Below, piece by piece: positions 9,131 through 59,205 of a DNA stretch of 64,000 nt. Under the pieces are notes generated by a model, which saw only the letters and a program-made list of their open reading frames with translations, did no database searches and had not been told where the DNA came from. Source of the DNA: an uncultured bacterium (GTDB lineage Bacteria > Patescibacteriota > Minisyncoccia > Moranbacterales > UBA2206); the NCBI GenBank assembly GCA_903831805.1, contig CAIKZD010000007.1, positions 7,886 to 71,885 of the forward strand. The letters are read 5' to 3'. The number at the start of each line of letters is the position of its first letter. The first letter of the stretch is position 1. The position numbers were made by a program, and so were the translations under genes.

Positions 9131-12100
9131 ATGTCCAAATACCACAAATTAATCTTAATCGCATTTTTTATAATAACGGGTCTTTCTTCCGCTTCTTTTG
9201 TCAGTGCGGAATCCGCTCCGACTGTGTCGGGAATCAACCCGGTCAGTGGATCGCCCAGTGGTGGAACCAGTGTAACGATTTCCGGCAGTAATTTTTCCAT
9301 CGGTTTGGATAGTTATACAAAGTTGCTTTTGCATAGCGACGGGGCCAATAATTCAACCACCTTCACTGACAGCGCGTCTTCTCCAAAAACAATGACGGCC
9401 AATGGTAACGCGAAAATTTCCACGGCGCAAAGTAAGTTTGGCGGCAGCTCAGCAGTTTTTGACGGCAATGGAGATTTTGTGTCGACGCCTGACAGCGCAG
9501 ACTGGGATCTTGGCAGTGGAGATTTCACCATTGATTATTGGATCAGATATCCGGCTACGCCCAACTATACCGCGGTGCTTGGGCAATGGAACGGAGCGAC
9601 TAGCCAGAAATCATGGCTCCTGGAACATATTGGCACAGCGGCGATGGGCTTCTATTACTCAACGACGGGGAGCGATCAATCGTCCGTGTCGTTCGCTTGG
9701 ACACCCAGCGTGGATACTTGGTATCATTGCGCCATGGTGAGGTCCGGCACGAACATGCTTTTCTTTGTGAACGGAACACAAGTGGGCACGGCGCAAAGCA
9801 TCGGCGCTGCGACATTTTTCAATTCGAGCGACCAATTTCAAATTGGGCAGCAGGAAGCCAACACCGGAACATCCGTGAATGCCTACATTGATGAGGTGCG
9901 CGTTTCCAAAGGGATCGCGCGTTGGACTGCCAACTTCACTTCGCCGAGTGTCAGATATGGCACTCCAGCTGTCACCATTGGTGGAACTGCCGCCACGAGT
10001 GTGGCGTCAACCGACGGCAGCACTATCACCGCTGTCACTCCGGCTCACGCGCTTGGCGCGGGAAATGTGGTTGCCACCAATCCTGACACTCAGAGCGCGA
10101 CACTGACAAATGGGTATACCTATTTTGTTTCCAATGTCTATTATTCCGTCGGTCAATCGGCCGCGGATCTCAAAACCGGTACGCCGAATGTCGCCATTAC
10201 GAGCGGCGTGGCCACTTTCACCGTGGCGCAAACCGGAAACATTGGTGTGGGAGATGTTATCGTCGCCAATGCCATTTCCTATTATATCTCAAGTAAAACT
10301 TCCACCACTGTTTGGAATGTGGTGACCAATACAGGTGCCACGCCGACCAATATTGGTTCCACGGCTGTCACTTCCATTAAACATGTCTACACCTCACTGA
10401 ATTCGGCCGTGGCGGGTGCAGCTACTTTACTGGGCAACTCCGATCTTACTGCCGCTAATGTCGCTCTGAATATTCCTTGTTATTATGATAGCGCCGCCGA
10501 TACGACGGCTGTCACAGTTTCCGGTTACACGACCGATGCGACGAGATATATCAAAATTTATACGCCGTCGAATACTGCGACGGAGAGTAATAATTCGCAG
10601 AGGGCGATGGGGAAGTGGGATGCGGGGAAATACAGCTTAGTATCATCCGGCACTACAACTGTTCAACTTAATAGTGCATATATTATATTTGAAGGCATCC
10701 AGCTAAAAAATACCAATGCAACTGCCAGCGCTGACACAGCCATAATATATACCAGCTTAAATAACGCAAGCTCTTTATTGACTATTAATAAAAATATACT
10801 TGTGGCTCAAGTGTCCGGGGTCAATACGATGTATGCTTTCAAAGATATATATCAGACAGTAAAGAATGTCATATTAAGCAATAATGTTTTTTATAATATA
10901 ACCGGTGGTTCTGCAGAAGATAGAGCGATTGTTATGGAGGGGGGAAACTTTTATGTATATAACAACACTGTTTATAACGCTGAAGTAGGATTTAAGATAG
11001 TATCGACTTCTACTGTGGTTGCCAAAAATAATATAGTTCAAGGTGCCACGGATGGATATTATGGAACTTTCGATGCGGCTTCCGATTACAACATTTCCAA
11101 TCTATCTAGTGACACAACAGGAGGAGCTCATGACAAGCAAGCTACCGTAAATTTTGTCTCCACCGTATCTGGTTTAGAAGACTTCCATCTTTCTCCTGCA
11201 GATTCCGCCGCGAAAAACTCCGGCGCGGATCTTTCTGCGGATGCCAATTTTGCTTTTTCCACTGACATCGACGGGGCATCAAGAAACGCGGCCATCAATG
11301 CTTGGGACATCGGCGCCGATGAAACGGCGACGGAGGTCTATTTCAGTGTTGGACAAAATACTAGCGATCACAAAACTAGTACACCGACTGTCACCGTATC
11401 CGGCACGACCGCCACTTTCAGTGTGGCACAAACAGCGACGAACATGGGGGTGGGGGATCTAGTGACTTACATCGGTGGGACTTGCTACCTATCCGCTAAA
11501 ACCAACGCCGATCAGATGCATTGGAATTGCGTCAGTGCGACAGGCGGACAACCGGCGCAAGTGGCAGGGGTGAGTGTCACTTCGATTGCCCACGCCTTCG
11601 GTGCGCTGGAAGGGACAGTTGATGCCAATACCGGCAATGGCGCTTTTGACGCATCGCATTTGAATACTAAAAACTTAGTCACTGGCAACTATCAACTCAA
11701 TGTGCCTTGCTACTATGACACCGGCGCAGATCCCAATACCTTAGGGGTAAGTGTGCGCGGCTGGACCACCGGCGGACAAAATTCCATCAAAATCTATACA
11801 CCAAACAACACCACCACCGAAGTCAATCAAACACAAAGGCCTGCTGGGAAGTGGGACGCGACCAAATATAATGTAGCGATAAATCACAGCGCTTTTGCTC
11901 TGTCCATGTTGACCATCAGAAACGACGCTGTCACCGTGGAAGGCCTGCAGTTCTATATGATTTCCACTGCCTTTGAACATGATGCCATCTACGCCATTAA
12001 TCCCAATGCCAGTGGCGCAATTAATATTGCCAGTAACATTATCAGAGCGGAACTTTCCGGTACGGCCACCGGCTTTGCCGTCATCTCGCATACGAACAAT

Positions 12101-13870
12101 GTCGGCAGCACCAATATTTACAATAATGTTATCTATGGTTTTGGTATAAACGGCGACGCCGGCGGCCCGGAAAAAGTCTACAACAACACGGTTAGTGGTA
12201 GTGCGGTGGGCATTTCCGGCACGGCCAATGATATTGCCAAAAATAACATCGTGCAAAATTGTGCCAATGGTTATTCCGGCACTTTCAACGCTGCTTCAGA
12301 CTACAACATTTCCGACCTGGCGGCTGACAACGCCGGTGGTGCCCATGACAAACAAGCCACGGTGGCTTTTGCGGATGCGACCAACAAGGATTTCCACCTT
12401 TCTCCGACCGACACGCAAGCCAAGGATGCCGGCGCAAACTTGAGCGCTGATTCCAACTTCGCCTTCACCACCGACATCGATTCTCAAACCAGAAATCAAA
12501 ACGGTCTCGGTTGGGACATCGGCGCGGACGAAGCGGCTACGCAGATTTTTTATAGTGTCGGACAAAATACTACCGATCACAAAACTGGTTCTCCGACCGT
12601 GACCGTTAGCGGTTCAACCGCTACATTTTCTGTGGCGCAGACTGCGACGAATATGGGCGTGGGGGATTTGGTGACCTACACTGGTGGCACATGTTACCTG
12701 AGCGCCAAAACCAACGCCGATCAGATGCATTGGAATTGTGTCAGTGCCACCGGTGGCACACCAACTGCAGCTTCGGCCGGCACAACCGTCACTTCCATCA
12801 CTCACGCCTTCGCTTCACTCGAAGGTGCAGTGGATGCCAACACTGCCACGGGTGCTTTTGACGCAACCCATCTAAACACGAAAGATTTAGTGACCAATAA
12901 TTATCAATTAAATATTCCTTGCTACTACGACACTGGTGCGGACACCACGGCGGTCACCGTGCAGTTTTGGACTACTGGGGCGCAGGATTATGTGAAAATT
13001 TATACGCCATACAACACGACAAGTGAAATTAATCAGACGCAGAGGCATAGCGGGAAGTGGGATGATGGGAAATATAGAATGGTTGTTCCAATGAATAATT
13101 TTTACAATGATATTATCTATTCGCAAATCAAGTTCGTCTGGATTGACGGATTGCAAATAGAAAAAGCGGAGGGAGTCGGATTTGACTCCGGAGGTATGTG
13201 GATCGAAAATAATTTTTCAGATGGGGGGGTGATCAGGATTTCCAATAATATTGTCAGAAATACCAACACCACAGGCACAATTATTTATGGAATTAGTGCC
13301 TTGGATTACTCATCTAATTTTGCGACGACATACTACGTCTGGAGCAATATTATTTATGGTTTTAACAATAGTGATAGCTATGGTATCTATTTGAATTATC
13401 TTTCAGTTGATACTGATTATGTTTACAATAATACAATTTATAATAATACAATCGGAATTAATAATGAGAATGGCGGTGGGACAGTTTTTGCCAAAAACAA
13501 TCTTGCCTATAACAACACCACGGACTATGCTGGTACATTCAATGCCTCTTCCACTAATAATCTTTCCAAAGACGCCACTTCGCCTAACGCCGGCGGAGCG
13601 GATTGTGGCGGGCACAGCTGCCGCAATCAAACCGTCAGCTTTGTTTCCACTACGACCGGTGCGGAAGACTTCCATCTTGCCCCATCGGACACCGCCGCCA
13701 AAAATTCCGGGGCGGATCTCTCAGCCGACGCTAATTTTCCTTTCAACACCGACATCGACGGCGAAACCCGCCACGCCGGCGTGTGGGACATTGGGGCGGA
13801 TGAGAACAATAGCATCAATGTGCAACTCAATCGGAATGTGCAGTTGAAGAGGAATGTGCAGATTAAATAG
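9131..13870 (+). CDS. Giant (1579 aa) secreted surface protein: IPT/TIG-like N-terminus, LamG domain, three ~400-aa tandem repeats with beta-helix-like segments
   Basis: Signal peptide. PVSGSPSGGTSVTISGSNF, then a LamG module. Repeat units start near 10130, 11336 and 12546 with ~85% nt identity between units 2 and 3. Recurring ...WDIGADE. Confidence 0.75.
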   Translation: MSKYHKLILIAFFIITGLSSASFVSAESAPTVSGINPVSGSPSGGTSVTISGSNFSIGLDSYTKLLLHSDGANNSTTFTDSASSPKTMTANGNAKISTAQSKFGGSSAVFDGNGDFVSTPDSADWDLGSGDFTIDYWIRYPATPNYTAVLGQWNGATSQKSWLLEHIGTAAMGFYYSTTGSDQSSVSFAWTPSVDTWYHCAMVRSGTNMLFFVNGTQVGTAQSIGAATFFNSSDQFQIGQQEANTGTSVNAYIDEVRVSKGIARWTANFTSPSVRYGTPAVTIGGTAATSVASTDGSTITAVTPAHALGAGNVVATNPDTQSATLTNGYTYFVSNVYYSVGQSAADLKTGTPNVAITSGVATFTVAQTGNIGVGDVIVANAISYYISSKTSTTVWNVVTNTGATPTNIGSTAVTSIKHVYTSLNSAVAGAATLLGNSDLTAANVALNIPCYYDSAADTTAVTVSGYTTDATRYIKIYTPSNTATESNNSQRAMGKWDAGKYSLVSSGTTTVQLNSAYIIFEGIQLKNTNATASADTAIIYTSLNNASSLLTINKNILVAQVSGVNTMYAFKDIYQTVKNVILSNNVFYNITGGSAEDRAIVMEGGNFYVYNNTVYNAEVGFKIVSTSTVVAKNNIVQGATDGYYGTFDAASDYNISNLSSDTTGGAHDKQATVNFVSTVSGLEDFHLSPADSAAKNSGADLSADANFAFSTDIDGASRNAAINAWDIGADETATEVYFSVGQNTSDHKTSTPTVTVSGTTATFSVAQTATNMGVGDLVTYIGGTCYLSAKTNADQMHWNCVSATGGQPAQVAGVSVTSIAHAFGALEGTVDANTGNGAFDASHLNTKNLVTGNYQLNVPCYYDTGADPNTLGVSVRGWTTGGQNSIKIYTPNNTTTEVNQTQRPAGKWDATKYNVAINHSAFALSMLTIRNDAVTVEGLQFYMISTAFEHDAIYAINPNASGAINIASNIIRAELSGTATGFAVISHTNNVGSTNIYNNVIYGFGINGDAGGPEKVYNNTVSGSAVGISGTANDIAKNNIVQNCANGYSGTFNAASDYNISDLAADNAGGAHDKQATVAFADATNKDFHLSPTDTQAKDAGANLSADSNFAFTTDIDSQTRNQNGLGWDIGADEAATQIFYSVGQNTTDHKTGSPTVTVSGSTATFSVAQTATNMGVGDLVTYTGGTCYLSAKTNADQMHWNCVSATGGTPTAASAGTTVTSITHAFASLEGAVDANTATGAFDATHLNTKDLVTNNYQLNIPCYYDTGADTTAVTVQFWTTGAQDYVKIYTPYNTTSEINQTQRHSGKWDDGKYRMVVPMNNFYNDIIYSQIKFVWIDGLQIEKAEGVGFDSGGMWIENNFSDGGVIRISNNIVRNTNTTGTIIYGISALDYSSNFATTYYVWSNIIYGFNNSDSYGIYLNYLSVDTDYVYNNTIYNNTIGINNENGGGTVFAKNNLAYNNTTDYAGTFNASSTNNLSKDATSPNAGGADCGGHSCRNQTVSFVSTTTGAEDFHLAPSDTAAKNSGADLSADANFPFNTDIDGETRHAGVWDIGADENNSINVQLNRNVQLKRNVQIK
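13803..13870 (+). repeat. 3' end of the giant gene (INVQLNRNVQLKRNVQIK*); a diverged duplicate lies at 15455..15510
   Basis: About 70% nt identity. The second copy translates VNVQINRNVQFKRGVTIK* and also ends in a stop. Confidence 0.6.
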
Positions 13871-18285: not shown

Positions 18286-19504
18286 TAATAGCCCTTGACA
18301 TTATTTTCAGGCCTGCTATCATAGTAAAGCGTTAAGAAATTAGTATGTGATTCCTGGGGGATTGTGCCTAAGAAAAGGGGATAATTTCAAGGATGACTGA
18401 ATGATAAAATCAATCAAAAAACTAACTGAAAAAAGCGGGCTTGCCCCGCGATCGCGAAGTGATTTTGCGGGGTGAAACTTTTAGAAGTCTTTGAATTTGC
18501 TTCTAAAAAACTCCGCTCTAAAGCGGTTTTTAATTTGTGCGGAAATAGTCTTTCATAAAATGATTGTGAAAATTATTTTCCGCATCAAACGCACCTTAAC
18601 AATTAAATAGCTCTACTCAAATAAAAATCTTTTTGCATTCTGTGCGATTCGATTAAGTTTAGTGGAGCAAAGGTCTTAATCTGGATATTCAATGCCTACC
18701 GTTGGCGGGAATAGAATTGGATATTTATGATTAGTCATCTAATGTCGCGTAAGCAATGCGATATTAGATAAAAGTAGGTAAAAAAATTGCAATAATGAAA
18801 ACTGTCAGTTAAATAGAGTTAGTGATTTTAGTGATTGCTAACTGCTAACATTGACCCCGATGTAATGTCGGGGTGAAAAATTTAAGAGCGGTAGTACTAA
18901 TGCATATGGTGAATGCCTTGACACTAAAAAGCGATGAAGGACGTAGCTAGCTGCGATAAGCTTCGGGGAGGTGCTGAGCAACCTTTGATCCGGAGATTTC
19001 CGAATGGGGCAACCCCTCCGACTTTACGTCGGAGAACTTTAGCTGAATAAATAGGCTATTGTAGCGAACCCGGCGAACTGAAACATCTTATTAGCCGGAG
19101 GAAAAGACATCAACTGAGATTCCCCAAGTAGTGGCGAGCGAACGGGGAGAAGCCTAAACCATCAGTCGCAAGACCGGTGGGGTTGCGAGATAATTCTACT
19201 CGTTTAATCGGGGTAGGAAACTGTTTGTTAATAGAACGTCTCTGGAAAGAGCGGCCATAGAGAGTGAAAGCCTCGTATATGAAAACGAACAACGACTACG
19301 GAATTATTCTCAAGTAGGGCGGGACCGGAGAAATCCCGTCTGAATCTGGGGCCACTATTGCTCCAAGGCTAAATATTTTTAGTGATCGATAGCGAACGAG
19401 TACCGTGAGGGAAAGGTGAAAAGTATCCCGATGAGGGAGATGAAATAGTATCTGAAACCATATGCTAACGAAGAGTAGGAGCCGCATTCTTCACTGACGT
19501 TCAG

Positions 19505-19620
19505 AATGAATTTTTAATTTCCAATTTTTAATTTTTTAAATAAATCTTAATGTCTAAATTTTTAAACATTAAGAAATTTGAAATTATTTATAAAATTACA
19601 AAATTAAAAATTTAAAAATT
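19505..19620 (+). other. 23S intervening sequence at the helix-25 site
   Basis: A ~115-nt AT-rich insertion relative to the E. coli-type sequence at a known IVS site. Confidence 0.6.
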
Positions 19621-20277
19621 CGGAACGCGAGTGAAGAGTGTGGTGACTGCGTGCTTTTTGTAGAACGATCCAGCGAGTTAGTTTTGTGTCGTCCGGCTAA
19701 GCGACTTTGTCGCGGAGCCACAGTGAAAGCGAGCTTTAACCGGCGAACAACGATGGCACGAACTAGACCCGAAGCCAGGTGAGCTATTTATGAGCAGGGT
19801 GAATTTGCTGTAACAGGCAAAGGAGGCCCGAACCCACGCACCGTGCAACATGCGGGGATGACTTGTGAATAGAGGAGAAATTCCAATCGAACTTGGCGAT
19901 AGCTGGTTCTTCCCGAAATAGCTTGAGGGCTAGCGTTGGGACAACTATGTTTTGGAGGTAGAGCTACTGAATGAGGATTCGCGGTTCGCCGTAGGGTTCT
20001 CAACCAAACTCCGAATTCCAAAACAATTATCCCAGCAGTCAGAACTCCGGGGCTAAGCTCGGAGCTCAAAAGGGAAAAAGCCCATGACCGCCGTCTAAGG
20101 TCCCAAAATCTATGTTAAGTGGGAAAGGAGGTGAAGTTTCTTATACATCTAGGAGGTTGGCTCAGAAGCAGCCATCCTTTAAAGAGTGCGTAACAGCTCA
20201 CTAGTCTAGAGACTTTGCGCCGAAAATTCAACGGGGCTCAAACATAGTACCGAAGACGCGGATGCCGTACATAGTAC

Positions 20278-20402
20278 AGAATGTCAAAATCCCAATGCCA
20301 AATGTCAAATAAATTCCAAAATCCAAATGACAAAAATTCCAAATTAATTTGAAATTTAGTCATTTGACATTTATTTGAAATTTGAGCTTTGAAATTTGAA
20401 AT
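20278..20402 (+). other. 23S intervening sequence at the helix-45 site (imperfect long hairpin, no ORF)
   Basis: ATGTCAAAATCCCAATGCCAAATGTCAAATAAATTCC ... GTCATTTGACATTTATTTGAAATT forms an imperfect hairpin. It is homologous to the arms of the element at 8640..9120. Confidence 0.6.
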
Positions 20403-21128
20403 TCCGCACTGTGTGCGGCGTGGTAGGGAAGCGTTCCATACGCGCTGAAGCGGCATGCGTGAGCATCCGTGGAGTGTATGGAAGTGAGAATGCTGGAATT
20501 AGTAACCGCAATTGGAGTGAGAACCTCCGACACCGAAAGTCTAAGGTTTCCTGGGCAATGTCAATCATCTCAGGGTTAGTCGGTCCTAAGGCGAGGTCGA
20601 AAGGCGTAGTCGATGGACATAAGGTTAATATTCCTTAACTTCGGTATGATTCGATGGAGTGACGCATTTTAGTAGTTCTTGCCGATTATTGGATTTCGGT
20701 AGGGGTACTGAGGAAGTGAGACAGGCAAATCCGTTTCACAATATTCCAAGGTATTTCTGGAACTCGCCTCACCGGCGAGGAACAAGAATGAGCAGAGTGC
20801 CAAGAAAAGCTTCTAAGATTAGTCATATCGAAACCGTACTAAAACCGACACAGGTAGACTGGGCGAGTAGCCTAAGGTGAACGAGTGAACCTTCGTTAAG
20901 GAACTCGGCAAAACAGCGTCCGTAACTTAGGGATATGGACCGCCGACCGCAAGGTCGGCCGCAGCGAAAGATACCAAGCGACTGTTTACCAAAAACACAG
21001 GTCTCTGCAAACCCGTAAGGGGAAGTATAGGGGCTGACGCCTGACCAGTGCTGGAACGTTAACGGGAGAGGTGCAAGCCAATCCCCGAAGCGCCAGTGAA
21101 CGTCAGCGATAACTATAATCGTTCTAAG

Positions 21129-21913
21129 GTTCTGTAATTTTTTATAAAGATTACAGAAAGACTGGAACGATTATGGGGATGTAATGGTAAATAAACAGAA
21201 TAGTTAAAAAAGGAAAAATAACTGCCTAGTTGCGTAATTAATTACGTAATTGTCTTAAAACATTTAGCCGTATGCTGGGAACTCTGGTGAATCTGGAGCT
21301 ACTATGGTACAATTATTCCATAGATTATTTAATGGAAAAATATGCCAAGTAAAAAAGCTGCCAGTGCAGACAATCAGCAGGAAAGACTAAAAATGATTGG
21401 TTGGATAGTTGGTTATGTTGACGGAGAAGGATGTTTCTCGGTAAGTCTCTTTAGAAATAAAACTACAAAATTTGGGTGGCAAGTGTTTCCTGAATTTGTA
21501 GTTACGCAAGGCGAAAAAAGCAAGAAATCGCTTGAAATTTTGATAAAATTTTTCAAGTGTGGAAAAGTTTTCGTAAACAAAAGATATGACGATCATAACG
21601 AAAATGTTTATCGCTATTGTGTAAGGTCTAAAAAAGATTTAACTGAGATTATAATTCCATTCTTCAGAAATAATCAATTGAAAACGGCCAAGAAGGGAGA
21701 TTTTAAAATTTTTGCGAAAATCATTGAGATGATGAATGGAAATGTTCACTCAGAATTGAAAGGAGTAAAAAAAATTGCAAAAATGATTGAAAAAATGAAT
21801 CACAAAAAACCTTCTAAGTTTTTAGAATCCTCAGAGACTAAACGCTAGATTCGCCTTCTGGGCGAAAAATTATAGTCCGTTCTCTTGGGCGACCAAGAGT
21901 TAACACAAAAGAG
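21129..21913 (+). mobile_element. Group I intron in 23S at the position equivalent to E. coli 1917 (CTAAGGT|AGCGAAATTCC)
   Basis: The exon sequence stops at ...GTTCTAAGGT (21128) and resumes at AGCGAAATTCCTTGGCAGGTAAG (about 21914). The insert is ~785 nt and contains a homing-endonuclease ORF. Confidence 0.75.
21342..21848 (+). CDS. LAGLIDADG homing endonuclease (single-motif type)
   Basis: WIVGYVDGEGCFSV is the LAGLIDADG motif. The ORF lies inside the 23S intron. Confidence 0.85.
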   Translation: MPSKKAASADNQQERLKMIGWIVGYVDGEGCFSVSLFRNKTTKFGWQVFPEFVVTQGEKSKKSLEILIKFFKCGKVFVNKRYDDHNENVYRYCVRSKKDLTEIIIPFFRNNQLKTAKKGDFKIFAKIIEMMNGNVHSELKGVKKIAKMIEKMNHKKPSKFLESSETKR

Positions 21914-22519
21914 CGAAATTCCTTGGCAGGTAAGTTCTGTCCTGCATCAAAGGCGTAACGACTTGGTAACTGTCTTAACGAAGAGCTCGGTGAAATTGCA
22001 ATGACGGTAAAGATGCCGTCGACCTGCAGCAAGACGAAAAGACCCCGTGGAGCTTTACTACAACTTGGTATTGAATTTGAGATTATATTGCCTAGGATAG
22101 GTGGGAGACTTTGAAGCTTCGACTTCGGTCGAAGGGGAGTCAACCTTGTAATACCACCCTGTGTGATTTTAAATTCTAACCCTGGACTGTTATGAGTTTT
22201 TCTAAAACTTATGATAGAACTGGCAAAAAACAAAGTTGTGAAGTTATCAAAATCTAACAAAGTTTTTTGCGGTTCAAAATTATATCGTTTTGGTTATTCA
22301 TACCAGTCCGGGGACAGTGCCTGGTGGGTAGTTTGACTGGGGCGGTCTCCTCCTAAATGGCAACGGAGGAGTTTACAAAGGTCGGTTAGGTCCGGATGGA
22401 AATCGGATCGATAGTGCAAACGCATAAACCGGCTTTACTGCGAGACACATAAGTCAATCAGTCACGAAAGTGGAAGTTAGTGAACCGACTATCGCTTATA
22501 GGAGCGTAGAAGATCATCA

Positions 22520-22552
<33 letters not shown>

Positions 22553-22578
22553 CCTCCCAAGAGTTCACATCGACGGAG

Positions 22579-22638
<60 letters not shown>

Positions 22639-23342
22639 TGGCTGTTCGCCAATTAAAGCGGTACGCGAGCTGGGTTCAAACCGTCGTGAGACAGGTTGGT
22701 CTCCTATCTGCTGTAGGCGTTATTGCTTGAGAGGACTCTTTCCTAGTACGAGAGGACCGGAAAGAACGAACCTCTGGTGTACCAGCTGTTCCGCCAGGAG
22801 CATTGCTGGGTAGCTACGTTCGGACGGGATAACCGCTGAAAGCATATAAGCGGGAAGCCCACCTCAAGATTAGGCAATTCTTGATGCTTGCATCAAGATG
22901 ATTTCCTGGGAGATGACCAGGTTGATAGGTCTCAGGTCTAAGTGGAGTGATCCATTAAGCCGAGAGATACTAATAAATTAAACATTATCTCTCTTAAGTT
23001 TCGATTAGCGAATTGCCGCGAATGTTAACGCGAGTGTTTGCAAATTTATTTGCAATCTATTCGTTTTCTCATTCGCGAAACATTCGTGAGTCTGTTAGCA
23101 GTTAACAGTTTCTAAAAAAAACTGAAAAGCAATTTAACAAACTATCTCATATCAAGCGTTTTTAAGCGATTAAAGACGTTGCCATTTTTGTCTATGAGAA
23201 AATTAAAAAACAGTTTCAAGTTCATTTTGACAATTTTTACCCTCACGACTTTGACCCTGATTTTCTTTTTGTTTTTTTCTCCCATGATTAAAACTTTTTA
23301 GGATAATCAAAAATCAAATAACGTTAAAGATTTGAATGCAAA

Positions 23343-23461
23343 GTTCCCAGTGTTTCTAGCGGCGAGGAAACACCCGATCCCATTCCGAACTCGGAAGTTA
23401 AGCTTGCCAGCCCCGATGGTATCTGTCCTTGTGGCAGGAAGAGTAGGACAATGCTGGGAAC
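23343..23461 (+). rRNA. rrf: 5S rRNA
   Basis: Helix I pairs GTTCCCAG with CTGGGAAC. Internal CCGAACTCGGAAGTTAAGC and GATGGTA...GAGTAGG are 5S-like. It lies ~350 nt after the 23S 3' end. Confidence 0.8.
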
Positions 23462-23564: not shown

Positions 23565-23614
23565 ATTCCTAAGGTCCGACCTTTGGATATCCAAAGGTCG
23601 GACCTTAGGAATCA
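23565..23614. repeat. Perfect 50-nt palindrome, family A variant
   Basis: GATTCCTAAGGTCCGACCTTTGGAT|ATCCAAAGGTCGGACCTTAGGAATC, exact reverse-complement arms. Confidence 0.8.
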
Positions 23615-23849
23615 GCTCTGCCTTTTTTGTGGATAATTTTGAATTAAAATGCTTTAAATCAGGCATTTTCGTCTCTTTACAAAAAGTTGATTCGGGTGTA
23701 TAATACTGGGTCGGTGTAAATTGTCCTTTAAAAACCCAATTTTGCAATTTGCCACAGCAGAAAGGATTTTTTTGAAGAATTCTTTCTGCTGTGGCGAAAC
23801 CGATTGGCCAAGTCCAACAGCGACAATCTATTTTATAGAGAGGTGTGCG

Positions 23850-24908
23850 ATGAAAAAAGTTGCGAGCCGACCAATAGAGGGAATAATTGAGTTTGTAAAA
23901 CAAATGGGAACAGTCCACGAGGCTGAGCGCATGATTATTGAGGCAGGGGGAATGAGTATATTCCAGTGGGCAATTACCGATCCGAACTTCCGTTATGATC
24001 TGGTGGCATTTGCCAATGACTATGTCCCAAGTGCGCTTAACTATGCAGCTCTACTCAAATGGTTTCAAGACAACAAGCTGGAAAGGTTTCTTTCCACCGG
24101 CAGTCTTGAAAAAAACATCAAGGAGCAGGAAATTTTTTATCAGAGATTTTATGGTAAAAGTTTCCGCATCGACCGCAAAAAGATTTTTGTCGATGCCTGG
24201 AGATTGCCAGCTATCAAGGTTGGACTGAAGGCGGGCAGTATAAACATCGCTTTGCTCAAAGCTACTCCGGAAATCCAGTCTGAGGTGGAAATACAAATGA
24301 CAGAAGTGGAATTTTTCTTCGATCGGATAATGAAACCGCTCAAAGAAAATAGCTTCAGAATCTGGGCGGAAGAGGGAGTTGACCGCTGGACCAACTTGAA
24401 ACTGGCAGAGTTTTTGCGCCGCTGCAGTCCGACGGAGCCGGAAGATTTTGATGCCGAAGCTTTCAAAAAAGATTGGGCGAAAGAAATAATTCGCATAATC
24501 AAAAAGAAAAGAGTGTTGCCGAATGTGACGACGGGCGCACTGGAAATAATTTTCACCAGCAACTTGGTGAATATCCCCAGTGACCAAATCATCGTCAATA
24601 AAAACGGCGAAATAGTTACTCCGGATGACCGCTCCTATGTTTCGGCCATAGCCAAAAACGTGAGAGTGCTTTCCAATGCAGAAGGGATTATTCTGGCGAG
24701 CCAGCTTTTCGCCAAGGATGGAACCTATCTGGCTCCCAATACTTGGGAATGGAGACGGGACTTGGTTGAGCATCAAGATAAAAAAACCAGCCCCTTTGCT
24801 TCAGTCGCGATCGTCGATTCTGGTGGCCACGAGTTCGGGCTCAGCTCCGCTGTGCTGACTGCTCCGATGGCGGCGGCCGTTTGCGTCTTGCCCTATAATT
24901 TCGGGTAG
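23850..24908 (+). CDS. DGR2 target protein with a C-terminal variable region
   Basis: The ORF track opens at 23721. I place the start at the internal Met MKKVASRPIEG (23850), which follows GAGAGG. The last ~36 codons are VR2. Confidence 0.6.
   Translation: MKKVASRPIEGIIEFVKQMGTVHEAERMIIEAGGMSIFQWAITDPNFRYDLVAFANDYVPSALNYAALLKWFQDNKLERFLSTGSLEKNIKEQEIFYQRFYGKSFRIDRKKIFVDAWRLPAIKVGLKAGSINIALLKATPEIQSEVEIQMTEVEFFFDRIMKPLKENSFRIWAEEGVDRWTNLKLAEFLRRCSPTEPEDFDAEAFKKDWAKEIIRIIKKKRVLPNVTTGALEIIFTSNLVNIPSDQIIVNKNGEIVTPDDRSYVSAIAKNVRVLSNAEGIILASQLFAKDGTYLAPNTWEWRRDLVEHQDKKTSPFASVAIVDSGGHEFGLSSAVLTAPMAAAVCVLPYNFG
24797..24906 (+). repeat. DGR2 variable repeat (VR2)
   Basis: Aligns with 25224..25333. 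About 20 substitutions, all at template adenines (VR mostly G), plus one 1-nt indel. Confidence 0.8.
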
Positions 24909-24974
24909 ATGCCGAAGGCGAGGATTTTGGATCTGTTTCCGCGAAGCGGAACAGGGAGTTTGGATAAAAAATTT

Positions 24975-25018
24975 CCAGATTTCAGCCCACGATGTAAATC
25001 ATCGTGGGCTTTTTTTAT
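24975..25018 (+). terminator. Rho-independent terminator after the DGR2 target gene
   Basis: CAGCCCACGATG-taaat-CATCGTGGGCTTTTTTTATT. Confidence 0.7.
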
Positions 25019-25223
25019 TGCAAAAAAATATGCTAAAATAAGCTTGAGCTCAGAGAGTGTTCGTACGCGACACTTTCCTCGTAACAAAACCCGAAGTTCA
25101 GCGCGTTTCCAGGGACGGAGAATAATGAAATTTATGCTAGCGTCCAAACAGAGGCTAAGATAATTGGCTATGAAAAGCGGAGCAATCTTCTTTTTGAAAT
25201 TATGGATGGAAACGGTGCTATAA

Positions 25224-25333
25224 TGCTTCAGTCGCAATCGTCAATTCTGATGACCACGAGTTCAAGCTCAACTCCAACAATGCTGACAACTCCAATGACA
25301 ACAACCGTTTGCGTCTTGCCCTAACACTTCGGG
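25224..25333 (+). repeat. DGR2 template repeat (TR2)
   Basis: Adenine-rich non-coding copy of VR2 (AAC/AAT-rich). Confidence 0.8.
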
Positions 25334-25716
25334 CCTTTTGTCTTTTTGAGCCAACCACCGATTTCTCTCCCGATGGAAACGATAGTTTCCAATTGGGAAG
25401 AATACCACCCAGTGGAAATGAATTTTTTGTCCACGGCCAGCCGCAGAGATTTTTTGAATAAATCAAAATTGGCGCTGGCCAGTGGCAGATAGATCTGGTT
25501 ATGAAGTGAAATCAGGGCAGCTTTATGCGTTTCGTTCAAAAAAAGCAAGATTTCTTTTCCCAAAAAATTTCTATCCATCTTGGGGAAATTTTGCACGCGA
25601 TCATAACAATTTCCGTATAATTTTTCTAATTCAGCAAATAATTTGGGCTGATTATTTTTATGAACGATATTCGTGGTAACGACTTCGCTGGGGGGGGGTC
25701 TTAGCGGGAATGCCAT
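25321..25716 (-). CDS. avd: Avd-like four-helix-bundle protein, paralog 2
   Basis: Same architecture as the 242..640 protein, including the C-terminal GREIGGWLKK versus QVGGWENWAK. It lies between TR2 and RT2. The start is probably an internal Met. Confidence 0.6.
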   Translation of the reverse strand: MAFPLRPPPSEVVTTNIVHKNNQPKLFAELEKLYGNCYDRVQNFPKMDRNFLGKEILLFLNETHKAALISLHNQIYLPLASANFDLFKKSLRLAVDKKFISTGWYSSQLETIVSIGREIGGWLKKTKGPKC

Positions 25717-26731
25717 TTGTCATAATGATATTTTTGAAAAAATTATTTCTTTAGAAAATTTGTTTTCAGCTTGGCAAGAATTTAGCAGGGGAAAGATGAA
25801 AAAGAAGGATGTCTTGGAATTTAAAATAAAATTGGAAGAAAATATTTTCCATCTCCATCAAACACTTAAAAACAAAACCTACCAGCATTCCCATTATACC
25901 GCATTTAACGTATATGACCCAAAACTGAGAAAAATTCATAAGGCCACGGTCATGGATAGAGTTTTGCATCATGCGATTTTTAGGATTTTATATCCACTTT
26001 TTGATCCAAGCTTTATTTGGGACTCCTATTCTTGCAGGATGGGAAAGGGTAGTCACCGAGCAGTCAAAAAATTGGAAAAATTCACAAGAAAAGCAAGTCA
26101 AAATAACAAAAGAAATATCTTTGCTTTGAAATGCGATATAAGAAAGTTTTTTGACTCTATTAACCAAGAAATTTTGCTGGAAATAATCCGAAGAAAAATA
26201 CAAGACAGAGATGCTTTATGGCTGATTGAAAAAATAATCCAAAGTTTCCCGGCAGGTTTGCCGCTGGGAAACGTCACCAGCCAAATTTTTGCCAACATCT
26301 ATTTGAATGAGCTGGATCAATTCGTGAAACATAATCTCAAAGAAAAATATTACCTGCGTTATTGCGATGATTTTATAATCTTGGGCGAAAGTGAAGAATG
26401 GCTGAAAAATATAATTCCAAAGATTGCTTGCTTCTTGCAGGAAAATCTACAGATCACGCTTCACCCGAATAAAATCAGTATCAGAAAATTCAGTCAAGGG
26501 ATAGATTTTTTGGGCTATGTGGTTTTGCCGCATCATAGAGTTTTGCGAACCAAGACCAAAAAAAGAATGATGAAAAAAATATCCCTGAAACAGAAAATGT
26601 ACCAGGAGGGTTTGGTTTCTGAGGAATCGCTCAATCAAAGCGTGCAATCGTATTTGGGAGTGCTGGAGCATTGTGAGGGGTGTGGGGTGGCGAGGGAGAT
26701 GGAAAGGACAATCGACAAGGCTAATGGATAA
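25673..26731 (+). CDS. DGR reverse transcriptase, paralog 2
   Basis: LGNVTSQIFANIYLNELD (SQ motif) and YYLRYCDDF (YxDD). ~55% identical to RT1 by eye. GTG start in the ORF track. A G9 homopolymer lies at 25689..25698. Confidence 0.85.
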   Translation: MVTTSLGGGLSGNAICHNDIFEKIISLENLFSAWQEFSRGKMKKKDVLEFKIKLEENIFHLHQTLKNKTYQHSHYTAFNVYDPKLRKIHKATVMDRVLHHAIFRILYPLFDPSFIWDSYSCRMGKGSHRAVKKLEKFTRKASQNNKRNIFALKCDIRKFFDSINQEILLEIIRRKIQDRDALWLIEKIIQSFPAGLPLGNVTSQIFANIYLNELDQFVKHNLKEKYYLRYCDDFIILGESEEWLKNIIPKIACFLQENLQITLHPNKISIRKFSQGIDFLGYVVLPHHRVLRTKTKKRMMKKISLKQKMYQEGLVSEESLNQSVQSYLGVLEHCEGCGVAREMERTIDKANG

Positions 26732-26880: not shown

Positions 26881-27555
26881 ATGCGGCAGGCCGAATTCGC
26901 TAATGGGGAATATTATCACATCTACAATCGTGGCGTGGATAAGCGCGAGGTGTTTTTGGATGAGGCGGATTATATTAGATTCTTGACCAGTATGCGTGAA
27001 TTCAATAGCATTTTAGATAGGGAAGAAAGACTAAGAAAATTGGAAAAGGAAAAATCGGAGTCCAACTCCGATTCGGAGTTGGACTCCGATTTTTCCGCCT
27101 CCACAGAACAAAAGTTGGTTGAAATTATTTGTTATTGCTTGAATCCGAATCATTACCATTTTATACTGAGGCAATTGCAGAAAAATGGCATCAGTAGATT
27201 TATGCAGAAAGTTGGAACTGGCTATACAAACTATTTTAATAAAAAACAAAATCGTTCCGGTGCACTCTTCCAAGGAAAATTCAAATCCATCCATATCGAC
27301 TCTAATGACTATCTGCTCTATCTGTCAGCCTACGTGAACGCTAATAATTTCATTCATGGATTTAATGAGAAGTTGGAAGATTGGGCATACTCAAGTTATC
27401 TGGACTATGCCGGACAGCGGGCAGGAAAGCTTTCCAAGAAAGAGGTTATATTGGGTCAATTTGATAATAATTTTTCGCAATATGCAAAATATATCAAAGA
27501 TAATGCGCTATACCTGAAGGAAAAAAAGGAAATGGCGAGCTATATTTTGGAATGA
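26881..27555 (+). CDS. REP-associated tyrosine transposase-like protein (IS200/IS605 Y1 HUH family), paralog 2
   Basis: YHIYNRG...YCLNPNHYHFIL...SGALFQGKFKSIHI...AYSSYLDY. ~70% identical to the 2441..3118 protein outside the variable loop. Confidence 0.65.
   Translation: MRQAEFANGEYYHIYNRGVDKREVFLDEADYIRFLTSMREFNSILDREERLRKLEKEKSESNSDSELDSDFSASTEQKLVEIICYCLNPNHYHFILRQLQKNGISRFMQKVGTGYTNYFNKKQNRSGALFQGKFKSIHIDSNDYLLYLSAYVNANNFIHGFNEKLEDWAYSSYLDYAGQRAGKLSKKEVILGQFDNNFSQYAKYIKDNALYLKEKKEMASYILE
27054..27090. repeat. Perfect 37-nt palindrome inside the RAYT2 CDS, related to family B
   Basis: ATCGGAGTCCAACTCCGA-t-TCGGAGTTGGACTCCGAT. It encodes the SESNSDSELDSDF segment, at the same protein position as the family-A palindrome in RAYT1. 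Confidence 0.8.
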
Positions 27556-53233: not shown

Positions 53234-54490
53234 ATGGCAGAAATAAAACCCCCGGTAGAAACTTTTGCAAGAATTAAGGTCATCGGTGTCGGCGGATCCG
53301 GCGGACATGCTATTTCCCGCATGATTGAATCGAAATTGAAAGGCGTGGAATTTGTGGCCATTAATACTGATGCGCAAGATTTGCATCATAACAAAGCCGC
53401 CGAGAAAGTGCATATCGGGAAAAACTTGACCAAGGGTCTGGGGGCCGGCATGAATCCGGATGTGGGACGCCAAGCCGCTGAAGAAAATCGTGATGAGATT
53501 CAAGAAATTTTGAAAGGGGCCGATATGGTGTTTGTCACTTGCGGACTAGGTGGCGGCACAGGTACCGGGGCAGCCCCGATTGTGGCGGAAACGGCCAAAG
53601 AATTGGGAGCCTTGACCGTGGCGGTCATCACCAAACCTTTCAGTTTTGAAGGCGCACAGCGTCGGGCTATCGCCGAAGAAGGTTTGGAAAATTTGCGGGA
53701 ACGCGTGGATACGCTCATCACTATTCCCAACGACAAACTGTTGCAAATCATTGATAAAAAAACTACCCTCATCAATTCTTTTAAAATTGTGGATGATGTT
53801 TTGCGCCAAGGGGTGCAAGGCATTTCTGATCTTATTACGAAACCGGGCATAGTCAACGTGGACTTTGCAGACGTGAAAGCTATTATGTCCAATAGTGGTT
53901 CCGCGCTCATGGGCATCGGTGTCGGCTCAGGCGAATCTCGCGCCCTGGACGCAGCTAAGGCGGCCATCAACAGTCCGCTTTTGGAACTGTCCATCGATGG
54001 GGCGAAAGGTGTGCTCTTCAATGTCAGCGGCTCGACTGACCTGACCATGCTCGAAATCAATGAAGCGGCCAATGTCATCACCGAATCCATCGATCCAAAC
54101 GCGAAAGTGATTTTTGGCGCAGTGGTGGATGAAACGATGAAAAAAGGTGAAGTGCAGATCACGGTGGTGGCTACCGGCTTTGATGCGGAAAACATCAAGG
54201 AATCTCCAGTCGAAAAACTCTCCCGCATGGCCAAAGATGACTCGCGCCGAGAAGATTCACGTCGAGAAGACTCGCGCCGCAAAGAAAGAGAAATGGATTC
54301 GGAACTAGATTTGGAATTGGAACCGAAAATGACTTTTCCGGAAAAATTCGGATCCAAAATGATCATCGAAGAAAAAGTGCCGCCGAAAAAACAGAACAAT
54401 TTCATGGCGACGCAAAAGAACAAAGAGCTGGAAGACGAAGACGACGAACTCGAAATCCCGGCGTTTATAAGGAGAAAGATGGGGAAATAG
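53234..54490 (+). CDS. ftsZ: Cell division GTPase FtsZ
   Basis: [14 protein letters not shown] and the tubulin signature [13 protein letters not shown]-terminal [16 protein letters not shown] repeats, then the conserved tail [16 protein letters not shown]. Confidence 0.9.
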
Positions 54491-54499
54491 TCCCGGATT

Positions 54500-54565
54500 A
54501 TTTTAGGAAAAACTTTGAATTAAATTCATAAATCAGCTCTGCTCAAGCAGGGCTTTTTTGTTGCA
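54500..54565 (+). terminator. Intrinsic terminator after ftsZ
   Basis: CAGCTCTGCTCAAGCAGGGCTTTTTTGTTGC. Confidence 0.6.
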
Positions 54566-59020: not shown

Positions 59021-59044
59021 ATTTATTCAGAATAGCCTTATGGT

Positions 59045-59205
59045 GACCCAAAAGAATAAAGAACTGGAAGACGAAGACGACGAACTCGAAATCCCAGCTT
59101 TCATCCGGAGGAAGATGGGGAAGTAGACAAAAATGACCTCATGAAATTCATTAAAATCTTTAAAAAACTCTGTATAAACAGAGTTTTTTGTTGCAGTAGG
59201 CGACT
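59045..59205 (+). repeat. Diverged duplicate of the ftsZ 3' end plus its terminator
   Basis: GAACTGGAAGACGAAGACGACGAACTCGAAATCCCAGCTTTCATCCGGAGGAAGATGGGGAAGTAG is close to 54425..54490. The hairpin+TTTTTTGTTGC matches 54530..54565. Confidence 0.7.

Follow-up and report, generated by a model that had tools for sequence, protein, structure and literature searches.

A preliminary description of the window (the whole 64 kb stretch of DNA that was analysed) placed a second, independent DGR at positions 23850-26731, which raises the question of whether this locus, DGR2, is a complete element of its own and how its mutagenic machinery might be controlled. We found that the region is a genuine second DGR with a complete cassette, arranged in the standard B3 layout of CPR/Patescibacteria. 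Its parts follow one another as a target gene with a promoter-like site and a terminator, a gene for an RNA that joins a structured leader to the template repeat (TR2), an avd gene on the opposite strand (avd2), and a reverse transcriptase gene (RT2). The avd2 stop codon (25321-25323, other strand) lies inside the 3' end of TR2, and the 5' end of avd2 is overlapped by that of RT2, which is on the TR strand. With TR2 and RT2 on one strand and avd2 between them on the other, this is the TR-(avd)-RT order termed B3, which makes up 90% of CPR DGRs (Wu et al. 2018, PMC5758913). The order target-TR-avd(-)-RT(+) had been read correctly at the outset, and the emphasis laid on its difference from the first DGR of the window (DGR1) was misplaced, as it is the common B3 order. 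Nor can two DGRs be called an unusually high density, as had been proposed, given that DGRs are significantly enriched in CPR (Roux et al. 2021, PMC8144416); both the gene order and the presence of two DGRs in one CPR genome are ordinary.

The independence of the two elements stands. TR1 and TR2 show no sequence relation, the covariance model of the DGR2 leader RNA (described below) finds no counterpart at DGR1, and the variable repeats are of different types, the DGR1 target ending in ...YKVRCVR* and that of DGR2 in ...RLRLAL*. Identities of 35% between RT2 and RT1 and of 22% between Avd2 and Avd1 indicate distant family members rather than recent paralogs, so that the second avd paralog initially described on the minus strand holds as to gene and strand, though not as a recent paralog. 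The bodies of the two targets are comparable over about 78 residues only, since the DGR1 target runs off the window edge. Genes resembling Y1 (REP-associated tyrosine) transposases adjoin both RTs; they are absent from the loci of all relatives, and we rejected them as part of the cassette.

The B3 order was seen again in every intact relative that we fetched, and at least 12 related strains have the DGR2 layout, the named relatives being Moranbacteria and Paceibacterota MAGs. The same architecture, a VR-TR spacing of ~430 nt and A-specific mismatches recur in L004, L005/L011/L025, L007, L009, L014, L016/L032, L026 and L033, and the layout is kept in the more distant L027-L030 as well. Among these, L005 (LBQR01000040, GW2011 Moranbacteria) was recovered in the groundwater study from which much of the published B3 set derives. 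Other relatives have decayed to orphan targets with no RT (L006, L012/13, L031), to a truncated RT with neither avd nor TR (L001-3), or to a VR joined to the 3' flank of TR, leader and TR being lost (L008, L015). No relatives of RT2 were found in viral contigs. Compared with the published CPR B3 DGRs (PMC5758913; 'DGR clade 2' of PMC8144416), DGR2 has the same gene order and strands, a likewise divergent Avd with a weak family-model match, a Patescibacterium host, and a target that likewise carries no recognisable domains, its VR not being assignable to CLec or Ig by sequence; at the level of the cassette there is no difference.

The mutagenic history of the element is recorded in its repeat pair. 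TR2 (25224..25334, plus strand), whose frame reads ASVAIVNSDDHEFKLNSNNADNSNDNNRLRLAL and holds 8 AAY codons, aligns on the same strand to the variable repeat VR2 (24797..24906, plus strand) with a single 1-nt gap. The two differ at 23 positions, 20 of which are adenines in TR (16 A>G, 3 A>T and 1 A deleted), an adenine bias well away from differences random in base identity (binomial P=3e-9, with TR 27% A). Throughout the mutable core (24809-24876 in VR, 25236-25304 in TR) every difference falls at an adenine (19/19), and 18 of the 19 fall at codon positions 1-2 of the TR frame. The earlier statement that the repeats differ always at A, and mostly to G, is accordingly accurate for the core and for the prevailing change, and fails for three non-A differences. 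These three, together with one A>T, cluster 3' of an identical GC-rich block (CCGTTTGCGTCTTGCCCT) at the repeat end, which in VR2 is the IMH-like, TR-identical segment 24877-24894, and their position past this block matches the IMH/IMH* pattern. An identical 18-nt GC-rich block followed by VR- or TR-specific bases occurs in all relatives. No further VR for TR2 was found in the window, where the next best candidates matched 34-35 of 72 non-A positions. Mutagenesis specific to adenines has altered 19 such positions among the last 27 codons of a target of 349 aa.

That length is the one read in the family frame, in which the target ends in ...CADCSDGGGRLRLAL at a TAA codon (24895-24897). As assembled, the gene (23850..24908, plus strand) encodes 352 aa up to a TAG at 24906-24908, and its last 19 codons lie outside the family frame. 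The cause is the 1-nt gap, a deletion between 24848 and 24849 that removes a TR adenine and takes these 19 codons out of the TR/AAY frame; the indel had been recorded in the preliminary description, which missed both of these consequences. Among 24 aligned relatives (P0002-P0029), most of them 347-351 aa long, the C-terminus R[LFV]R[LV]xL is present in 23 (mostly as RLRLAL), and the VR is in frame with AAY-rich TR codons in 23; the window allele is shifted. The deletion is most simply explained as a slip of reverse transcription. Comparing consensus assemblies, we found the same frameshifted VR2 allele, base for base, in at least 8 independently assembled contigs and in at least 10 samples, and the frameshifted target protein identical across JGI, NCBI, ENA and Logan records (at least 10 samples). 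Among the contigs of this strain the DNA is 100% identical over the whole cassette, VR2 and all flanking DNA alike.

The target belongs to a very small protein family for which no relative of known function was detected; where members are named, their assemblies are of Patescibacteria. Neither the single protein nor the family as query matched a sequence in Pfam, NCBIfam or PDB, and weak matches to Pox_D5 (E about 0.02, 15 bits) were dismissed as noise. A full-length structure model (pLDDT 78.8, with 51-79 over the last 60 residues) had no Foldseek match in PDB or BFVD, and a domain-only AlphaFold model was of too low a quality to be searched (pLDDT 52.5); the C-type-lectin fold considered for the C-terminus is not established by these models. 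Upstream, the sequence TTTACA-17-TATAAT (23676..23704, plus strand) agrees with the promoter consensus at 11 of 12 positions, the best in the region, and would serve as the target promoter. Downstream of VR2, a GC-rich inverted repeat at 24932..24953 (plus strand; CTGTTTCCGC GAA GCGGAACAG, with a GAA loop) is a candidate DGR target-recognition hairpin, and it is kept with compensatory changes in L004, L009, L011 and L016. Another, first hairpin, present in L004, L007, L009, L014 and L016, is truncated in the window, which could reduce homing competence. The terminator previously noted between target and TR is borne out, with an 11-bp stem (24984-25010, 7 GC pairs) followed by T7 and spanning 24984..25016 on the plus strand as a whole, at a position conserved in relatives.

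Both proteins of the mutagenic machinery are recognisable. RT2 (25660..26731, plus strand), first identified by its LGNVTSQ motif, indeed carries LPLGNVTSQ and YCDD and matches RVT_1 at 74 bits. DGR-type RTs bear the signature [LIV]GxxxSQ in place of the QGxxxSP of group II intron RTs. As expected for a DGR RT, the nearest curated family of RT2 is the group II intron RT, whose cut-off it does not reach, and thousands of RT2 homologs adjoin Avd and TR. Avd2 as assembled (25321..25716, minus strand, 131 aa from ATG 25716) matches bAvd (E=1.9e-7, 31.9 bits, cut-off 40) and NCBIfam DivGenRetAVD (E=1.2e-8, 35.2 bits, cut-off 80), covering the whole profile in both cases, and the precomputed Pfam assignment of an identical protein is bAvd.

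Beyond these standard parts, TR2 forms the 3' part of a separate RNA of ~300 nt with a putative conserved promoter and a 180-nt 5' leader. The probable promoter is an extended -10 element, TGcTAAAAT (25031..25039, plus strand), and the pattern TGnTA[AG]AAT lies directly 5' of the leader in 7 of 7 loci. The leader (25045..25226, plus strand) forms five to six helices. Across 9 distinct sequences, 96.8% of cells are paired, compared with at most 50% in slid controls, compensatory changes affect 12 pairs and 32 cells, compared with 1-5 in controls, and the covariation score was reached by none of 500 shuffles. The covariance model scores the leader at 197.6 bits, as high as the leaders of relatives, and this is the sole significant match in the window. 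The model likewise found no counterpart in the more distant B3 relatives, which bear a different conserved leader, and the leader has no match in Rfam. It was found only in loci with an intact cassette, a motif search for further loci returned none, and the literature we searched holds no description of a promoter-driven structured leader 5' of a TR. The sequence TGCTATAAT at 25216-25224 was considered as a promoter abutting TR and rejected, being in relatives not a -10 element and instead the 3' strand of a conserved helix.

A 14-bp long-range helix that would enclose TR is predicted between the leader (25084-25097, ACAAAACCCGAAGU) and a 3' strand at 25326..25341 (plus strand, ACUUCGGG..UUUUGU). 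RNAalifold places it in the consensus, and the MFE fold of the single sequence contains it as well; it shows no covariation because both of its strands are invariant. Its duplex energy was no better than that of shuffles, a comparison that has no power here because the U-rich tail pairs readily with the A/G-rich leader. The helix is a prediction only; duplexes between upstream and downstream TR flanks are a known feature of DGR RNAs (10.1101/2023.10.23.563531).

Set beside the Bordetella phage BPP-1 DGR (mtd-avd-TR-brt), DGR2 shares the adenine-specific transfer from TR to VR, the pairing of an RT with an Avd, the IMH/IMH*-like GC-rich 3' homology block followed by VR- or TR-specific bases, a GC-rich hairpin 3' of VR, and the predicted pairing of sequences up- and downstream of TR. 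The two differ in that avd, TR and brt are all on one strand in BPP-1, whereas the avd of DGR2 is antisense and 3' of TR. They differ also in their RNA, for in BPP-1 a 140-nt structured priming 'Spacer' lies 3' of TR and only about 20 nt upstream are needed (Handa et al., 10.1101/2023.10.23.563531), whereas in DGR2 the conserved structured RNA of 180 nt lies 5' of TR, apparently under its own promoter. In contrast to BPP-1, no priming site can be named in DGR2, and its target scaffold is not demonstrably a C-type lectin. In B3 DGRs, reverse transcription may be organised by a structured RNA placed 5', not 3', of TR.

A possible means of control lies where RT2 and avd2 overlap. A tract of nine Gs (G9, 25690..25698), read as Gly codons in RT and as Pro codons in avd, separates each conserved ATG from the conserved body of its protein. 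At this length both conserved ATGs are out of frame, that of RT2 (25660) opening an ORF of only 14 codons and that of avd2 (25723, MTN...) being shifted in the same way, and G8 would restore both together. In-frame alternative starts are available in the window at G9, a GTG at 25673 that opens the NTE frame of RT2 (352 aa) and the avd ATG at 25716, so that RT2 and Avd2 may both be made without any switch. Gene callers start RT2 at M42 (311 aa, P0074), dropping the NTE helix IFEKIISLENLF, and among the 120 closest homologs of RT2, over half have gene calls that lack the NTE. Neither an avd/RT 5' overlap through a poly-G tract nor frame-offset conserved start codons are described in the literature that we searched.

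Within the 64 kb, G9 is the sole G/C run of at least 9, and a (GA)16 repeat is the sole long dinucleotide repeat; the latter occupies the equivalent place in the DGR1 RT, which is also out of frame. A tract of G8-G10 is conserved in 15/15 strains examined, being one G too long for both conserved ATGs in 12 of them (this one included), in frame in 2, and at +2 in 1. This strain has G9 in 6/6 assemblies, a relative strain is assembled once with G8 and twice with G10, and the RT2 and Avd2 proteins predicted for G8 and G11 were absent from the records in an exact-sequence look-up. For DGR1, the exact 406-aa RT that is one repeat unit shorter is present in a public assembly (P0314), on a contig of only 1.5 kb, and RT1 relatives carry variable (RE)n peptides at the place of the (GA)n. 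Short-read assembly is prone to error in the lengths of homopolymers and dinucleotide repeats, and such error may underlie these length differences.

Contingency loci, in which poly-G/C or dinucleotide tracts switch genes in Campylobacter, Neisseria, Haemophilus and Bordetella (e.g. PMC1891110, PMC2831843), are marked by simple-sequence repeats in the 5' coding region that shift the reading frame when they lengthen or shorten, and such a repeat is found here. As in those loci, the tract (8-10 G, or (GA)16 in DGR1) stands just past the start codon, and differing lengths are recorded in assemblies of one strain, both for the relative's G tract and for the DGR1 (GA)n. Unlike in those loci, the genes that would be switched are the RT of a mutagenic retroelement and its Avd, the latter by way of the tract as read on the opposite strand, and the off state is strongly biased to +1. 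We lean, by a modest degree, towards a reading in which repeats between the start codon and the RT NTE gate DGR activity in Patescibacteria, as poly-G in the DGR2 clade (where it would gate Avd too, via the other strand) and as (GA)n in the DGR1 clade. Target hypermutation would then be confined to a minority of cells or to a low, recoded level, and both DGRs of this genome would be off, with VR2 frozen in its frameshifted state.

The bias to +1 bears also on the strongest alternative, which we rate as improbable: that the tract is a programmed recoding site rather than a heritable switch, the extra G belonging to the design. Some RT (at GGG_G) and some Avd (at CCC_C), a small and unvarying fraction, would then be made through +1 ribosomal frameshifting or RNA-polymerase slippage, giving a low, steady DGR activity. 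Such a site would fit the prevalence of exactly +1 tracts with only 2 strains in frame, the stop that follows within 1-4 codons 3' of the tract in the ATG frame, and the many RT homologs called without the NTE. The tract lengths of 9-10 nt also equal the length of the RNA:DNA hybrid, and CCC_C and GGG_G are known +1 shift-prone sites. Against it, the occurrence of G8 and G10 within one strain indicates variation in the length of the DNA itself, the dinucleotide repeat of DGR1, of which a DNA length variant exists, is beyond correction by simple ribosomal slippage, and in about one in four homologs of the RT2 clade the canonical ATG is in frame.

Slightly less probable again is that DGR2 is a decaying, non-functional cassette, its VR frameshift, off-frame starts and truncated hairpin marking early pseudogenisation. 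Decay of the kinds listed above (orphan targets, truncated RT, VR fused to the TR 3' flank) is frequent among the relatives, and the VR is identical in all assemblies. The RT and Avd ORFs, however, are fully open with catalytic motifs intact, the AAY codons are kept in TR, the leader scores level with those of relatives, and the same +1 tract is found in 11 other strains whose cassettes are otherwise intact. Very improbable is a third alternative, in which errors of sequencing or assembly have produced both the VR frameshift and the G9 length and mask an ordinary, in-frame, active DGR. Consensus errors typically arise in hypervariable VRs and homopolymers, and several contigs of the strain break off at the start of TR (25231) or shortly after the tract (25706, 25727, 25789). 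Against this, the VR sequence and G9 recur base-for-base across assemblers, samples and projects, and the +1 state recurs in unrelated MAGs; assembly chimeras are likewise an unlikely source of the TR/VR differences.

Returning to the reading with a repeat-length switch, the parts of DGR2 can be assembled into a working model. The extended -10 would drive transcription of the leader-TR RNA, whose folding would place the leader beside the 3' end of TR, where it would take the role of the downstream 'Spacer' RNA in the Bordetella phage DGR. RT2 and Avd2 would copy TR with errors at adenines, and the cDNA would replace VR by means of the GC-rich 3' block common to both repeats and of the hairpin that lies past VR. 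The G tract would act as a simple-sequence switch, through heritable phase variation or through recoding, leaving the machinery of mutagenesis silent or weakly active in most cells. A VR that stays frameshifted would accord with this, and the frameshift could be repaired when homing next takes place. Taken as a whole, this explanation (a complete B3 DGR, the leader-TR RNA mechanism, a frameshifted VR and a G-tract switch) is one that we hold with good confidence.

As a DGR, DGR2 is one more member of a large CPR set, with the expected layout. Its fixed VR2 frameshift indicates that DGR products can fall out of frame, a point that matters for surveys in which target integrity is scored. To our knowledge, only the RNA of the Bordetella phage DGR is understood so far, and the covariation-supported leader offers a defined RNA for reconstituting a CPR DGR. 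The tract could account for part of the NTE-less calls among the closest RT2 homologs, and, if true, a repeat-length switch in RT that is common to avd would provide a simple and testable form of regulation for a clade of thousands of elements.

DGR2 is a complete B3-type DGR with a diversified, now frameshifted target. Its variable repeat VR2 (24797-24906) and template repeat TR2 (25224-25334) lie on the same (+) strand and align with a single 1-nt gap. TR adenines account for 20 of their 23 mismatches (16 A>G, 3 A>T and 1 A deleted), a strong bias (binomial P = 3e-9, with the TR at 27% A), and in the mutable core of the template (25236-25304) all 19 of 19 differences fall at adenines, 18 of them at codon positions 1-2 of the TR2 reading frame, ASVAIVNSDDHEFKLNSNNADNSNDNNRLRLAL, which holds eight AAY codons. 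The preliminary description, which put all of its ~20 differences at TR2 adenines, mostly against G in VR2, together with a 1-nt indel, holds up, apart from the three differences at other TR bases. The other differences lie 3' of an identical GC-rich block, CCGTTTGCGTCTTGCCCT, after which VR-specific and TR-specific bases are found in every relative, as with the IMH and IMH* boundary elements of the Bordetella phage DGR. No further partner repeat for TR2 was found in the 64-kb window.

RT2 carries LPLGNVTSQ and YCDD motifs and matches RVT_1, bearing out the LGNVTSQ motif first reported for it. The minus-strand avd was likewise recovered, as an ORF (25321-25716) that matches both bAvd and NCBIfam DivGenRetAVD along the full profile, with both scores below the curated cut-offs, as was the terminator 3' of the target, a strong one. 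Relatives sharing the target family show target (+), a gap of ~430 nt in which the TR lies, then avd (-) and RT (+), and their mismatches are A-specific; the arrangement also holds in relatives whose targets are different, and it is present in every intact relative fetched. The gene order originally described thus holds but is in no way unusual, being the B3 architecture, TR-(avd)-RT, found in 90% of the CPR set of Wu et al. 2018 (PMC5758913). Nor is the presence of two DGRs the unusually high density it had been taken for, since CPR DGRs form a clade of their own and DGRs are enriched in CPR (Roux et al. 2021, PMC8144416); both the gene order and two DGRs per genome are ordinary for Patescibacteria. 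Named relatives of the target and of RT2 belong to Moranbacteria, Paceibacterota and other Patescibacteria MAGs, and the window itself comes from a Patescibacterium. The RT clade is very large (at least 7,798 matches at E <= 1e-20) and the target family tiny (41 representatives among 1.84 billion), which implies that one RT/Avd/TR core is combined with many targets. DGR1 is a genuine, separate DGR, with 13 TR/VR differences, all A-to-N, and a VR ending in ...YKVRCVR and a stop. TR1 and TR2 have no sequence relationship, and identity is 35% between the two RTs and 22% between the two Avd proteins, in agreement with the independence first proposed for the two elements.

Several modes of decay are seen among the relatives. 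Two loci (L008, 6810-6893; L015, 6746-6819) have a VR joined directly to a TR-type 3' flank and avd, with the leader and TR gone, an arrangement that either VR x TR recombination or a collapsed assembly could account for. Three others (L001-L003) have a truncated RT, no avd and no TR, and at L006, L012/L013 and L031 the target is an orphan for which no RT lies within range. In L016 (~1040) and L032, identical in sequence, the RT reading frame has TAG where the ...LFLAWQEF motif has its conserved Trp, which could reflect either a pseudogene or codon recoding.

A 23S rRNA gene (18887-22994) and a 5S rRNA gene (23346-23459) immediately precede DGR2; no 16S gene turned up in the window. At ~4.1 kb the 23S gene exceeds its 2.9-kb model, and it includes a LAGLIDADG endonuclease ORF (21342-21848), so that at least one intron is probable. 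A REP-like perfect palindrome (AAGGTnnnACCTT...AAGGTnnnACCTT) occurs in three copies (687-723, 2633-2668 and 23571-23606): one after avd1, one in frame inside a Y1-transposase-like ORF (2441-3118), to which it contributes 17 residues, and one between the 5S rRNA gene and the promoter of the DGR2 target. That ORF and a paralog 60% identical to it (26881-27555), both IS200-like or REP-associated tyrosine transposase-like, each adjoin a DGR RT gene; the DGR loci of the relatives all lack a Y1 gene, which makes this association particular to the present genome. Between the promoter-like site and the ATG of the DGR2 target, in its predicted 5' untranslated region, is an inverted repeat (23748-23798; 24-nt arms, 88% complementary, 3-nt loop). 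Elsewhere in the window are 8-nt-period arrays (7904-8035 and 19497-19620, one within the 23S region), a 1579-aa ORF (9131-13870) with internal ~1.2-kb repeats (11019-13776), a 128-nt repeat pair 4.6 kb apart (54392-54519 and 59028-59155) and a C8 run at 18162.

The 1-nt gap in VR2 reflects the loss of a TR adenine (AACAAT versus -GCTGT). The assembled target ORF follows the TR frame 5' of the gap and reads AVLTAPMAAAVCVLPYNFG and a stop 3' of it, instead of xCADCSDGGGRLRLAL and a stop. RLRLAL or a close variant forms the C-terminus of 23 of 24 aligned relatives, most of them 347-351 aa long, and the repaired window protein would have 349 aa; the variable columns of the family coincide with TR adenine codons. 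We consider the frameshift real rather than an assembly accident, because at least 10 samples (JGI, NCBI, ENA and Logan) yield the same protein, apart from differences in where its start is called, and because over the cassette eight contigs match the window at 99.98-100% identity. Such identity implies that the strain is clonal across samples, so that an invariant VR consensus alone says little on activity. Most simply, the deletion would have arisen when the error-prone RT slipped at an adenine; for bRT, slippage on the template and indels within AAC repeats have been discussed (PMC12875486). Since homing swaps the whole VR, a later round could restore the target frame.

A full-length model of the closest intact relative of the target reached a pLDDT of 78.8 overall and was weak over the C-terminal 60 residues. 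The NTWEWRRD motif and terminal RLRLAL look like the WEW and GFRxx elements known from lectin-type VRs, a likeness that we treat as a lead only. A model of the domain by itself was poor, Foldseek and sequence profile searches gave no match, and many CPR VRs were left unclassified by Wu et al. too (PMC5758913).

Between the target terminator and TR2 lies a 180-nt leader block, preceded in all loci by TGnTA[AG]AAT and more conserved than the flanking coding DNA. Across nine distinct sequences and a 55-pair structure, 96.8% of cells make a standard pair, versus 41-50% in slid controls; 12 pairs are changed on both sides (1-4 in the controls), as are 32 cells (1-5), and none of 500 shuffles attained the covariation score, which together support a structured leader RNA. 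The covariance model has a single match in the window, at DGR2 (197.6 bits), and none at DGR1 or in loci without an RT; an Rfam search with the leader gave no match. In the consensus fold, 25084-25097 (ACAAAACCCGAAGU) pairs with 25326-25341, just 3' of the TR, in a predicted helix that would enclose the TR; neither of its strands varies, and shuffled sequences form a duplex just as good. In the Bordetella phage, a structured priming RNA downstream of the TR (Spacer, 140 nt) pairs with the TR end and an upstream segment (10.1101/2023.10.23.563531), whereas antisense avd lies downstream of TR2. By analogy, the upstream leader may supply equivalent functions. Three more distant B3 relatives (L027, L029 and L030) carry at the same place upstream of the TR a different, mutually conserved leader of ~250 nt, and a hairpin just downstream of the TR.

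RT2 and avd2 are divergent, and their overlapping 5' ends include a tract of nine Gs (G9, 25690-25698), the sole G/C run of at least 9 in the 64-kb window. The tract is conserved in all relatives at G8-G10 and flanked by conserved starts, an ATG on the RT side (25660 in the window, ~30 nt upstream) and one on the avd side (25723, MTN...). At G9 these open ORFs of only 14 (RT) and 21 (avd) codons; G8 in the window would give RT MNDIRGNDFAGGGLSGNAICHNDIFEKI... and Avd MTNGIPAKTPPSEVVTTNIVHKNNQPK..., both agreeing with relatives. In 12 of 15 strains the tract is exactly one G longer than the in-frame length for the conserved ATG(s), two have an in-frame tract, and for the remaining strain one assembly shows an in-frame G8 and two show G10. 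More than half of 120 RT homologs are called without the N-terminal extension (NTE), and about a quarter have the canonical ATG in frame. Because the bRT NTE contacts Avd in a cryo-EM structure (10.1101/2023.10.23.563531), an RT lacking it would be unlikely to work. Alternative in-frame starts at G9 (ATG 25716 for avd, GTG 25673 for RT) could permit expression without a switch. As read from these loci, a conserved repeat tract sets the frame of RT and avd. In L027 (~1082), L029 (~3413) and L030 (~3470), the avd start (GTG/TTG) and RT start (ATG) overlap back-to-back within a few bases, and the G tract lies only within RT. One same-strain contig (L020, ERZ18626419 scaffold_6844) matches the window to 25727, just past the avd start, followed by 46 nt of unrelated sequence; either a misjoin or structural variation at the avd/RT junction could explain this. 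Further contigs from this strain stop at 25231, 25706 and 25789.

A second repeat precedes RT1. Upstream of the called RT1 ORF (1164-2258, minus strand) is (CT)16 on the + strand (2329-2360), hence (GA)16 on the RT1 strand, the sole dinucleotide repeat of at least 6 units in the 64-kb window; it lies between ATG 2386 and the NTE (FQNLLAAYHDCRKQKR). As assembled, this ATG is out of frame and opens a 29-aa ORF, and one repeat unit fewer yields a 406-aa RT. That exact protein is found in a public assembly (P0314) and the out-of-frame form in 15 contigs, and (RE)n peptides of varying length are frequent at this position among RT1-clade homologs.

In two RT clades, then, an equivalent functional position is held by two unrelated repeat types, each with length variants, which points to heritable phase variation. 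Programmed recoding at the G tract is a rival, kept alive by the strong +1 bias of that tract. Our searches found no literature linking DGRs with homopolymer or phase-variation terms. The tract would act as an on/off or attenuating device for RT and avd, and the frozen, frameshifted VR2 may reflect a largely silent cassette. The cassette itself is of a known type, and it is this regulatory reading that merits tests.
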